A stretch of DNA of 61,868 bases from Candidatus Atribacteria bacterium (GTDB lineage: Bacteria > Atribacterota > Atribacteria > Atribacterales > JASGLU01): contig JASGLU010000002.1 in the NCBI GenBank assembly GCA_030156825.1, positions 1 through 61,868 of the forward strand, written 5' to 3'. Shown here piece by piece: positions 1-33,846 of the stretch (its first letter is position 1; each line of letters begins with the position of its first letter). The translations under genes were made by a program, and so were the position numbers. The notes under the pieces were generated by a model that was not told the origin of the DNA, did not search any database, and saw nothing but the letters and a program-made list of their open reading frames with translations.

Positions 1-282
1 TTAGTTTTTCTCTTTTAATCTTTGTTTTTGGGGGTTATTAGGGGGGTCTTTTCCCCCTGATAGTGAGGAAAGTGTTTTCCTTTCCTCAGTTGTCTTTTAT
101 GTATTTTCTTTACGTTTTTTGTATTTTTTGTTTTTCGGGGGTAATAGGGGGTTTACCCCCTATTACTGAGGAAAGTGCCTTTCTTCCTCAGTTGTATTTT
201 AATCTTTGTTTTTGGGGGTTATTAGGGGGGTATTTTCCCCCTGATAGTCGGGGTTATAAGGGGGCAAGCCCCCATTATTGCC
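1..282 (+). repeat. Array of palindromic hairpin modules separated by T-rich linkers. It is the right-hand part of a repeat element cut by the window edge.
   Basis: H1 hairpins (G5-N6-G5/6-loop-C5) at 30-62, 136-166 and 214-246. H2 hairpins (TGAGGAAAG/CTTTCCTCA type) at 64-88 and 166-191. Terminal module GGGGTTATAAGGGGG-CAAG-CCCCCATTATTGCC at 250-282. The 47-nt direct repeat 17-63 = 201-247 has 1 mismatch. Bases 1-30 align with the T-rich tail after the core at 17347-17390. Confidence 0.8.
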
Positions 283-314
283 ATAAGATAGTGAAGGGAG
301 TTGAAAAACATCAT

Positions 315-17257: not shown

Positions 17258-17375
17258 GATAGACCCCCATGTTGCTCGCAGCACCAGGTGACAACGAAAA
17301 AGGAATTCAATATAATAAATTTTAGAGAAACAATAATGGTCTATCCTTTCAGTTTTTCGTTTTTTTTAAGTCTTT
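17258..17375 (+). repeat. Conserved non-coding core of the repeat element, copy 1. It may be a structured RNA or a MITE-like unit.
   Basis: Near-identical to the reverse complement of about 33325-33428. GATAGACC (17258-17265) is complementary to GGTCTATC (17338-17345). The hairpin TGCT-CGC-AGCA (17273-17283) is replaced by GCCCC-TTC-GGGGC in copy 2. Confidence 0.8.
17288..17316 (+). promoter_or_regulatory. Sigma70-like promoter motif inside the repeat core (GTGACA-N17-TATAAT)
   Basis: -35 GTGACA at 17288-17293, a 17-nt spacer and a perfect TATAAT at 17311-17316. Copy 2 has the same geometry (ATAACA-N17-TATAAT, minus strand, 33397-33369). Confidence 0.45.
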
Positions 17376-17384
17376 TGCTTTTTT

Positions 17385-17514
17385 CGGGGGTTATTAGGGG
17401 GTATTTTCCCCCTAATACTGAGGAAGTGTTTCCCTTCCTCAGTTAGTATTTTATGTTTTTTTAGTTTTTGTGTTTTTTTGGGGGTTGATAAGGGGGTTTA
17501 CCCCCTTATTGCCG
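17385..17514 (+). repeat. Hairpin-module array following core copy 1
   Basis: H1: TATTAGGGGG/CCCCCTAATA, 10 bp (17392-17417). H2: CTGAGGAAG/CTTCCTCAG, 9 bp (17418-17442), followed by a T-rich tract. Terminal module ATAAGGGGG-TTTA-CCCCCTTAT then TGCCG (17488-17514). Confidence 0.8.
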
Positions 17515-17561
17515 TTTATAGGATAAAATCGCTAATTTGAGTAGGAAGGTGAAAGATATAT

Positions 17562-22650: not shown

Positions 22651-22754
22651 TTTGCACGAAGCACAAAGAACAAAAAAGAATATATTGTCTTAGCTCAAGT
22701 TCTGAATTTTACCAGAAAACTCTCCCTGCTTATAGTATAATTACCCTATAAGTA

Positions 22755-22851
22755 GCCTACGGTGTAGATAAAAGAAGGAAAAGACTTGCTGAGGATAATA
22801 AAATACGCACCCAGTGCCTACGGCGTTAGAAAAAACAAAACTTACTGAAGG
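22755..22851 (+). repeat. Degenerate tandem duplication in an intergenic region, period about 61 nt
   Basis: GCCTACGGTGTAGATAAAAGAAGGAAAAGACTTGCTGAGG (22755-22794) against GCCTACGGCGTTAGAAAAAACAAAACTTACTGAAGG (22816-22851). Confidence 0.6.
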
Positions 22852-22962
22852 GGAGAAAACATCTCCACGAGCATTTGATTTGAAAAGAAAAGGTCATCCA
22901 AGAGTACTTATCTAACCTTAAAAATGGAATAAAACCTGAGGTAGAAGAATATTTACAGAGGA

Positions 22963-33211: not shown

Positions 33212-33247
33212 ATTGGACAGAATGATGAAGATAGTGGTGAGGATAGA

Positions 33248-33428
33248 CGGCAATAAGGGGGAGTACCCCCTTATAAATCCCCGAAAGCAAAAAACTTAAA
33301 AAATAAAAGGCAAAGACTTAAAAAACGAAAAACTGAAAGGATAGACCACTATTGTTTCTCTAAGATTTATTATATTGAATTCCGTTTTCATTGTTATCTG
33401 GTGCCCCGAAGGGGCATGGGGGTCTATC
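33248..33428 (-). repeat. Repeat element copy 2, inverted relative to copy 1: a core plus one terminal hairpin module
   Basis: The reverse complement aligns with 17258-17375 and with the terminal module 17480-17514 (ATAAGGGGG-TACT-CCCCCTTATTGCCG). The H1/H2 modules of copy 1 are absent. Confidence 0.8.
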
Positions 33429-33846
33429 CTCTAATCTTCAAAAATTCCCTAACGGAGATAGTCTTTATCCCTTCCAATTCTTTTAAAGGTAGAATGTGCC
33501 GTCTATCCCCAGAAATAATATAATCTGCCTTACTTTCTAAAGCACATTCGAGAATACGATTATCATCATCTTTACTTTTTATTATAGAAACTTTAACTTT
33601 GGGATAAACTTCATTAGCTTTTGGTCTTATCAACGCTAAGAGCTTCTCTGTTTTAGGTTCTTCCCAAAAAAACTTCTCTCTAAGTATCCTGATTACCTCT
33701 TCAAATATAAAAGGAGAGATATAAACTTCTATATCGTCCTTTAGGAATAGCCTTATAATTTCTAAAGCATTACCTCCGAAAGCAAAAGCAGATATAAAGA
33801 CGTTAGTATCTATTACTACCTTAGTTTTATTTTCTGTAGCTATCAA
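33424..33846 (-). CDS. vapC: PIN-domain toxin (VapC-like ribonuclease)
   Basis: VVIDTNVFISA at the N-terminus, with acidic residues spaced as in a PIN domain. It overlaps the upstream antitoxin gene by 20 nt. Confidence 0.85.
   Translation of the reverse strand: MIATENKTKVVIDTNVFISAFAFGGNALEIIRLFLKDDIEVYISPFIFEEVIRILREKFFWEEPKTEKLLALIRPKANEVYPKVKVSIIKSKDDDNRILECALESKADYIISGDRRHILPLKELEGIKTISVREFLKIRG

Follow-up and report, generated by a model that had tools for sequence, protein, structure and literature searches.

What are the runs of short GC-rich hairpins that occupy three intergenic gaps of contig JASGLU010000002.1 of a Candidatus Atribacteria bacterium, and do they act as RNA or as DNA? 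This stretch, 61,868 nucleotides (nt) long and referred to here as the window, is the complete contig C85 of a 98-contig, 1.98-Mb, 43% G+C assembly. An earlier note on the window described arrays of a G5/C5 hairpin (H1) and a second hairpin (H2) separated by T-rich linkers, likened them to repetitive extragenic palindromes (REPs) and the bacterial interspersed mosaic elements (BIMEs) built from them, and took the pairing of the stems as a hint of function as plus-strand RNA. Here, we show that the modules are a very abundant non-coding mosaic repeat family that fills intergenic gaps and is real and highly non-random, and that a strand-specific RNA role is not supported. Our tentative reading, which we put at a little under an even chance, is that the family is non-autonomous mosaic mobile DNA acting at the DNA level, a form of selfish DNA resembling REP, BIME, BOX and Neisseria intergenic mosaic element (NIME) sequences.

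Every hairpin module named in the earlier note was found by direct reading of the window sequence (Table 1), and the same modules recur throughout the genome. A census with the pattern G4-7, 4-8 nt, G5+ loop C5+ gives 206 oriented copies of H1, each 27-36 nt long, together with approximately 105-135 H2 hairpins, and these are grouped in 140 arrays with one to four strict H1 each, in keeping with the varying module number seen between the three loci. The H1 pattern matched the genome 116 times against 0 for a reversed control pattern, and only 8 of the 206 H1 copies lie inside the bodies of open reading frames (ORFs), where 70% would be expected. Repeat regions, defined by 15-mers occurring at least four times, number 304, make up 2.4% of the assembly and reach 114 of its 196 contig ends, which makes the family the chief reason why the assembly is fragmented. 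That the repeats are themselves an assembly artefact of low-complexity sequence, a possibility raised in the earlier note, deserves almost no credence: many copies do lie at contig ends, but this is expected of genuine multicopy sequence, dozens of arrays are internal to contigs with unique flanks on both sides, the family is present in five relatives assembled independently of this genome, and an independent Logan contig matches without difference up to and including the head module of one composite (the ‘core’, below) and ends within the same repeat.

The family is lineage-restricted, high-copy and modular, and is REP/BIME-like in kind. Among 86 Atribacterota genomes the H1 pattern was found only in this one and in five genomes of a single genus belonging to a different family. 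No Rfam match was obtained at gathering thresholds over the entire window, and a literature search found no paper connecting Atribacteria or Atribacterota with REPs or such repeats. The description of the arrays as a REP/BIME-like repeat of an unrecognised family is borne out, with high copy number, modularity and intergenic location, no Rfam match, and a fit to neither the GTAG nor the CGTC definition of a REP. The family is apparently undescribed, and fits no described family that was tested.

The three loci in the window illustrate the grammar of the arrays. Locus 1 (1-291, plus strand) is truncated at its left by the contig start and has six hairpins rather than the five first counted, in the order linker-H1-H2-linker-H1-H2-linker-H1-terminal H1 and tail. 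Locus 2 has the order H1, H2, linker, terminal H1 and tail, and locus 3 has only one hairpin, a terminal H1 that lies on the minus strand, inverted relative to loci 1 and 2. Loci 2 and 3 are each joined upstream to a core of approximately 95 nt with the layout GATAGACCCCCATG-hairpin-CACCAGRTRACAATGAAAAC (also read CACCAGGTGACAA)...GGTCTATCC-TTTCAG.

Genome-wide, the canonical unit is 85-105 nt long and consists of H1, an H2 placed 0-7 nt behind it, and a linker of about 39 nt. H1 has an unpaired G4-7 ‘tag’ located 4-8 nt upstream of the stem, a stem of A/T pairs plus G5/C5, and a short loop. Each H1 had been noted to contain two G-runs and one C-run, such that two mutually exclusive hairpins could form; both G-runs are present, but the upstream one, although conserved, is unpaired in every predicted fold. 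The H2 stem takes in a flanking A...T, and in 75 of 105 cases H2 is preceded at 0-7 nt by another hairpin (H1 in 60, a CGTC-type REP in 15), the other 30 following mixed palindromes or unique sequence, with some copies mis-oriented in the census. Linkers average 39 nt and 69% T and have a weak word period of 7-8 nt; DNA curvature from phased T-tracts was considered and rejected, the period not being 10-11 nt.

The arrays are strongly polar. Of 486 modules, 450 (93%) share the orientation of their own array, i.e. are head-to-tail, as are all H1-H1 and H2-H1 transitions. The right ends of arrays are sharp – 40 of 73 stop within 30 nt past the last H1, with 24 at 4-11 nt past its C-run, 16 more at 15-29 nt and peaks at 4-11 and 21-29 nt – and the left extents are spread evenly over 0-320 nt, either ragged or fused to other modules. 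Two tails are recognized, T1 (TTGCCGTTTACAGGATAG(A); 54 copies genome-wide) and T2 (TATTGAAAGACCTGACCCC; 16-20 copies, with 13 of about 16 directly behind an H1). T1 ends 39 arrays and T2 ends 10-12, and approximately 70 have no tail. The notion that one terminal module always comes last thus holds in that arrays end in H1, but what comes after that H1 varies, the TTATTGCC tail being one ending among several.

At the other end, roughly 80 core heads are present in the genome; a core precedes 29 of the 110 non-edge arrays, and the transition from the 3′ end of the core to H1 is seen 28 times. The 3′ part of the window cores (type A) follows 33 of the approximately 80 heads. A complete composite reads ...GATA|GACCCCCATG...core...linker-(H1-H2-linker)n-H1-TTGCCGTTTACAG|GATA(G), in which a short direct word (GATA/GGATAG) flanks the element and neither inverted repeats nor a clear target duplication are visible.

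The stems are under clear constraint. Outside the G5/C5 helix, positions 2-4 of the H1 stem alternate between A-T, T-A and C-G among subfamilies and are 80-92% Watson-Crick paired, and H2 stems covary (CTGAGG/CCTCAG, CCGAGG/CCTCGG, CTGGTGG/CCACCAG). Because these positions switch pair type yet stay paired, stem structure appears to be under selection. The claim of strand-specific G-U compensation came from two H1 copies at locus 1 (30-62 and 214-246), each with the stem TATTAGGGGG(G)/CCCCCTGATA and a single T.G pair, and it does not survive the census. Internal G.T pairs outnumber A.C pairs by 23:8 in one count and 22:10 in another, but the base counts summed over the oriented arrays (T 12100, G 7118, A 6903, C 5934) would by themselves give a ratio of 2.1:1, and 14 of the H1 G.T cases belong to one expanded subfamily (TATTA...TGATA) that includes the two window copies. 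Counted by distinct H1 stems, G-U and A-C stand at 10 versus 8, and the wobble excess is accounted for by base composition plus this one subfamily. The most frequent non-Watson-Crick pair in the stems is G.A (77 copies). The commonest H1 loop (51 of 204) forms GCGAAGC, a hyperstable DNA mini-hairpin (PMC13037366), and is a hint, from sequence, that H1 may form a hairpin at the DNA level.

The orientation of the arrays likewise does not suggest a role tied to transcription of their neighbours. Arrays between co-directional genes are sense in 22 cases and antisense in 18, or 14 and 14 under stricter filters; relative to the upstream gene the ratio is 35:24 (p=0.19), and relative to the downstream gene 39:37. 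Arrays on the same contig agree in orientation in 56 comparisons and disagree in 42 (p=0.18), and orientation relative to the local majority gene strand is 57:41. Per-contig GC skew largely tracks gene strand (r=0.92), and a replication-strand bias was not supported, array orientation against GC skew being only 52:38 and non-significant. The strand bias relative to flanking genes that the earlier note had proposed to look for is therefore not seen, orientation being random. Both strands also fold similarly (RNA z -4.3 versus -6.8; DNA z -6.4 versus -6.7), and with random orientation, similar folding and an explained wobble excess, function as plus-strand RNA is not supported, which is also the outcome under the refuting condition that the earlier note had set.

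Several observations suggest that the units have spread. Comparison across arrays at unrelated loci gives eleven unit pairs with 93% identity or more, the mean identity of units sharing an array (0.72) is hardly above that of units from separate arrays (0.70), and none of the 18 units having a neighbour finds its best match in its own array. Local tandem duplication is not supported as the source of the arrays by these identities, in a comparison biased by short-read assembly, which hides identical tandem units. Upstream of ileS, the gap that houses locus 2 is 338 nt long here and 13-90 nt in relatives, and five relatives lack the whole 17258-17525 composite at the orthologous position. In the search for close strains, no contig encoding the vapC-like ORF next to locus 3 was found, and a metagenome protein scan found no relative.

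A link to a mobilising enzyme is provided by the T2 tail. The sole gene in the genome resembling a REP-associated tyrosine transposase (RAYT), with Y1 and helix-turn-helix (HTH) domains, is an N-terminally truncated, frameshifted pseudogene (C19:28814-29516) whose Y1 match falls below the Pfam cut-off, and its 5′ boundary is an inverted linker-H1-T2 (region C19:28660-29516). The suggestion that a RAYT/TnpA-REP-like gene should be sought elsewhere in the genome is thus answered by a RAYT, but only by a damaged one. Intact orthologues of 288 amino acids in sister families score 86.9 bits (cut-off 80) with NF047646, the NCBIfam model ‘REP-associated tyrosine transposase’, match Pfam Y1_Tnp and have a C-terminal HTH. 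In three genomes (G011, G009 and G003; loci L239-L241) the intact RAYT is bracketed by perfect 27-30-bp terminal inverted repeats (TIRs) GGGGTCAGGTCTTGATTCTTGAATTT (GGGGTCAGGTCTT...), whose outer 13 nt are tail T2. The outer TIR word, AAGACCTGACCCC, is itself dispersed, with 5-28 copies, and across the order it co-occurs with the RAYT gene in 10 of the 13 genomes having either, among 32 searched. By these sequence matches, one part of the mosaic – T2 – appears solidly tied to a RAYT, of the kind with flanking TIRs that is described in PMC3733652.

In an unrelated GC-rich organism (L249 110-433; LNAO01000175.1), the T2/TIR word and the 3′ end of a RAYT-like ORF (...GVHYTTVSR...YIERPDP) overlap, and the conserved TIR terminus may be partly coding sequence in some lineages. 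Metagenome matches to the word were set aside as belonging to unrelated GC-rich organisms.

The near-identical dispersed units, the copy missing from the orthologous site, the sharp right and ragged left ends, and the link between T2 and RAYT lead us to favour non-autonomous mobile DNA. The GCGAAGC loop, the polarity, the lack of TIRs and duplications, the sharp right ends and the linkage of a Y1 enzyme to one tail together fit HUH-type copying in trans. In this view, a Y1/HUH-type enzyme that has since decayed, or that was lost in the unassembled 7% of the genome, would have copied the units in the form of single-stranded DNA hairpins. New units would insert directly 3′ of an existing hairpin (CCCCC-WTTA|) and regenerate the target, and repeated insertion behind hairpins would build head-to-tail arrays in which the last module is always H1; homologous recombination between arrays would then shuffle the modules. 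The terminator-like H2 plus T tails and the promoter-like box of the core would be side effects, possibly altering expression of neighbours.

A number of points weigh against this account. The tie of RAYT to H1 itself is weak: the two are anti-correlated, as genomes with an intact RAYT lack H1 and H1-bearing genomes have only RAYT pseudogenes or none, and the H1 beside the pseudogene could belong to an array that inserted into the gene and truncated it. Neither an intact Y1 nor a reverse transcriptase (RVT_1) was found in this genome or in five H1-bearing relatives, nor an IS110/DEDD transposase (PF01548) in this genome or in four of the five H1-bearing relatives checked. The comparison at ileS is with relatives, at a coarser level than that of strains, and the breakage of tandem units in short-read assembly leaves the choice between dispersal and local duplication resting on a biased test. 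H1 also departs from known REPs in its tag, a G4-7 run with no GTAG or CTAC at either end, and in its arrangement, there being no inverted REP pairs of the REPIN type but 93% head-to-tail modules; head-to-tail dimers are rare in REP families (PMC3733652). Among other modes of copying, retroposition was not supported, there being no RVT_1 match, and a search for IS91-type rolling-circle enzymes gave no Y2_Tnp match, although its control was also silent.

Other explanations account for some of the same features. The arrays could be a multicopy small-RNA or terminator cassette, in which transcription from the core promoter would yield a U-rich RNA, with H1 and H2 as its folds and H2 plus the U tail as its stop; as RNA genes or portable promoter-terminator units, such cassettes would need no fixed orientation relative to their neighbours. 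We consider this unlikely, despite a core box on the T-rich array strand (GTGACA-N17-TATAAT) that agrees with the promoter consensus at 11 of 12 positions and keeps its TATAAT in 26 of 33 type-A cores. The covarying stems and the G+T-rich strand bias intrinsic to each module also fit such a cassette, and H2 plus its T tail passes a simple consensus scan for intrinsic terminators on the T-rich strand only; however, the numbers of promoter and terminator calls lie within the range of shuffled controls, orientation to the upstream gene is the 35:24 given above, and most arrays lack a promoter, the core preceding just 29 of 110. The G.U excess within compositional expectation, the similar folding of both strands and the lack of an Rfam match count against it as well. 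It is a step less likely that the composite of core, array and T1 is a miniature site-specific element, moved by an IS110/bridge-RNA-type or other recombinase at (A)GGATAG-like sites, with H1 and H2 as an expandable interior. Composites do start ...GATA|GACCCCCATG and end ...GTTTACAG|GATA(G) with no TIRs or obvious duplication, and the T1-to-core junction recurs 15 times, but core and T1 are both missing from most arrays, and the searched genomes lack the DEDD transposase as described above. The relative designated G024 has two intact IS110 copies, and their ends, as far as they can be read, are unrelated to core or T1, although their flanks are partly masked (as N at L038 131-418 and 1668-1913 and L039 86-346).

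A role that serves the host is a poor prospect, at about the bottom of the range that we take seriously. The arrays would then be structural DNA of the NIME type, kept by selection because a nucleoid protein or recombinase binds them or because recombination is concentrated there. Most genomes of the order lack the family, and relatives lack it at the orthologous position, with no conserved host need evident; no candidate binding protein was identified, and the near-identical copies point to recent spread. These stand against the heavy shuffling of modules between arrays, the alternation of GC hairpins with 69%-T spacers, like the G+C wave of NIMEs (PMC1797815), and the presence of 63 dRS3-like CGTC hairpins (ATTCCCGA-N9-TCGGGAAT), some of them interleaved in arrays, all of which would suit such a role.

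Among the nearest counterparts of the family are the REP/BIME-RAYT systems of Enterobacteria and Pseudomonas, with the GTAG-tagged REP superfamily (PMC3733652). Shared with these are short GC-rich imperfect palindromes with a conserved unpaired tag at one end, hundreds of intergenic copies, subfamilies with compensatory stem changes, mosaics with conserved linkers, and a RAYT-family gene in the lineage whose long flanking TIRs form a dispersed family, as in one class described there. H1 fits the size, copy-number and extragenic character of a REP, defined as a palindrome of 20-40 bp. It differs in that each unit also includes a second hairpin and a long T-rich linker, and in that the RAYT of this genome is a pseudogene, while the presence of RAYT from genome to genome follows the T2 tail rather than H1. 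CGTC REPs are defined by a terminal CGTC/TGTC, an 8-9-bp stem starting with A-T, a 4-5-nt loop and a CCA tail (PMC3733652), and H1 and H2 have no terminal CGTC, TGTC/CGTC occurring only within H2 loops. The mosaic structure and recurrent linkers of Escherichia coli BIMEs are also shared, with orientation here direct and not alternating. It is improbable, in our estimate, that H1 represents a third, ‘G-run-tagged’ REP-like class beside GTAG and CGTC, handled as single-stranded DNA by TIR-type HTH-bearing RAYTs and inserted head-to-tail behind hairpins; if it did, this would be a polar, self-seeding route to mosaic arrays.

A CGTC-tagged REP-like hairpin of its own kind is present in the genome. 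The module CGTC-ATTCCCGA-N9-TCGGGAAT-CCA, with its ATGCCCGA variant, has the dRS3-like form known from Neisseria, fits the CGTC definition except in loop length, and occurs in 63 copies genome-wide and none in the window. It is interleaved with H1/H2 arrays and with alternative 3′ parts of the core.

Likeness to other repeats is more partial. Pneumococcal BOX elements, boxA-(boxB)n-boxC (PMC3049150), are likewise built from a fixed head, a variable tandem interior and a fixed tail; they too number about 100 or more between genes, contain predicted stem-loops and have no transposase of their own. The architecture core-(linker-H1-H2)n-H1-T1 is of this type, with 28 core-to-H1 and 39 H1-to-T1 transitions, but the likeness is one of architecture alone: no sequence relationship is apparent, the direct GGATAG word at head and tail replaces inverted-repeat-like ends, several alternative heads and tails exist, and strand composition bias is much stronger here. 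NIMEs (PMC1797815) share GC hairpins alternating with lower-GC spacers of 20-200 nt, shuffled subfamilies of spacers and hairpins, and dRS3-like CGTC hairpins, which in this genome are sometimes interleaved. They differ in that the window hairpins are of the G5/C5 and CTGAGGAA types and not ATTCCC-N8-GGGAAT, with no dRS3-like hairpin in the window arrays, and in that the arrays here are short (1-4 H1) and no phage recombinase is known to target them; NIME arrays were reported in 2007 as unobserved outside Neisseria (PMC1797815). The palindrome-associated transposable elements (PATEs), ends-only derivatives of IS200/IS605 elements that insert 3′ of a fixed short target and have a cognate TnpA (Y1), likewise show no TIRs, no visible target duplication and a strictly polar arrangement; their two ends carry hairpins that differ but lie subterminally on one strand, as H2 (left) and H1 (right) do in our unit of approximately 100 nt. 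A cognate full-length IS200/IS605 sharing the ends of our unit was not found.

The family unites traits normally found apart: REP-like tagged hairpins, BOX-like architecture, NIME-like GC/AT alternation, strict polarity and a RAYT-TIR tail. If the proposed mechanism is correct, polar, hairpin-seeded insertion would be a new way for HUH enzymes to build arrays. Atribacterota are represented almost entirely by uncultured organisms, and with repeats forming about 2.4% of the genome and lying at more than half of the contig breaks, a known grammar aids assembly and annotation of their metagenome-assembled genomes (MAGs). Judged from sequence, the terminator-like and promoter-like pieces may also reshape expression of adjacent genes, of which ileS is the one in the window.

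Table 1. Repeat modules in the 61,868-nt window
Position	Strand	Feature	Basis
1-29	+	T-rich linker, cut by the contig start	Direct reading
30-62	+	H1, TTATTA subtype; hairpin at 36-62 (a single T.G pair) preceded by an unpaired G-run at 30-34	Reading, folding
63-89	+	H2 variant GTGAGGAAAG...CTTTCCTCAG; terminator-like score with T-rich tail	Reading, terminator scan
90-136	+	T-rich linker	Direct reading
137-165	+	H1, TAATA/TATTA subtype; G-run, then hairpin GGGGG-TTTA-CCCCC	Reading, folding
166-191	+	H2 CTGAGGAAAG...CTTCCTCAG, abutting the preceding H1	Direct reading
192-213	+	Short T-rich linker	Direct reading
214-246	+	H1, TTATTA subtype; second copy with T.G pair	Direct reading
250-291	+	Terminal H1 (250-280) and degenerate T1 tail TTGCCATAAGATAG	Reading, census
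17258-17352	+	Core head module; promoter-like box GTGACA-N17-TATAAT at 17288-17316 pointing into the array	
17353-17385	+	T-rich linker from core to first H1	Direct reading
17386-17417	+	H1, perfectly paired TATTAGGGGG/CCCCCTAATA	Reading, folding
17418-17442	+	H2 CTGAGGAAG...CTTCCTCAG; terminator-like with tail TAGTATTTTA	Reading, scan
17443-17479	+	T-rich linker	Direct reading
17480-17525	+	Terminal H1 and T1 tail TTATTGCCGTTTATAGGATA; right end of the composite	Direct reading
22750-22870	-	Probable decayed array lacking H1, with ACGCCGTAGGC modules, T-rich linkers and the 3′ halves of two H2-like hairpins	
33240-33290	-	Single terminal H1 (G-run 33282-33279, hairpin, TTATTGCCG), then TCTATCCT	
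33291-33332	-	T-rich linker (A-rich on the plus strand)	Direct reading
33333-33429	-	Second core head module in the window; abuts the 3′ end of a vapC-like ORF	

The core head is itself a module shared among several mosaic elements. Its 55-nt part (e.g. 17258-17312) reads GGATAGACCCCCATG-covarying hairpin-CACCAGATRACAATGAAAAC in about 80 copies and has at least four continuations: one is a hairpin of the form CACCCTCACCCT...CTCTCCC, two are of CGTC-REP type, and one is the 3′ part called type A, with its promoter-like box. The minus-strand core of locus 3 has a promoter-like box at the same position as that of locus 2 (near 33370-33400; GTGACA/ATAACA-N17-TATAAT). Elsewhere in the window, a 312-nt A-rich gap around 22750-22870 resembles a decayed minus-strand array, and the ACGCCGTAGGC module found there is also present inside arrays on other contigs.

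Outside the phylum, the H1 pattern gives mostly single chance hits among the matches listed from 185,000 species. Genomes with multiple hits, showing a very similar motif, are found in Ruminiclostridium, Ruminococcus, Chlamydiota and Deltaproteobacteria, in which Y1 genes are inconsistently present, and matches on viral contigs were dismissed as generic GC hairpins (an anellovirus-like GC-rich region and giant-virus-like repeated hairpins). A near-identical motif, G5-TTTAA-G5-loop-C5-TTAAA, occurs in tandem 138-nt units with CTCTCCC...GGGAGAG hairpins in a Ruminiclostridium MAG (L061 280-520), and at the tips of a long-inverted-repeat element of approximately 260 bp in a Chlamydiota MAG (L050 1868-2125). 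Should H1 define a G-run-tagged class, that class might span phyla.

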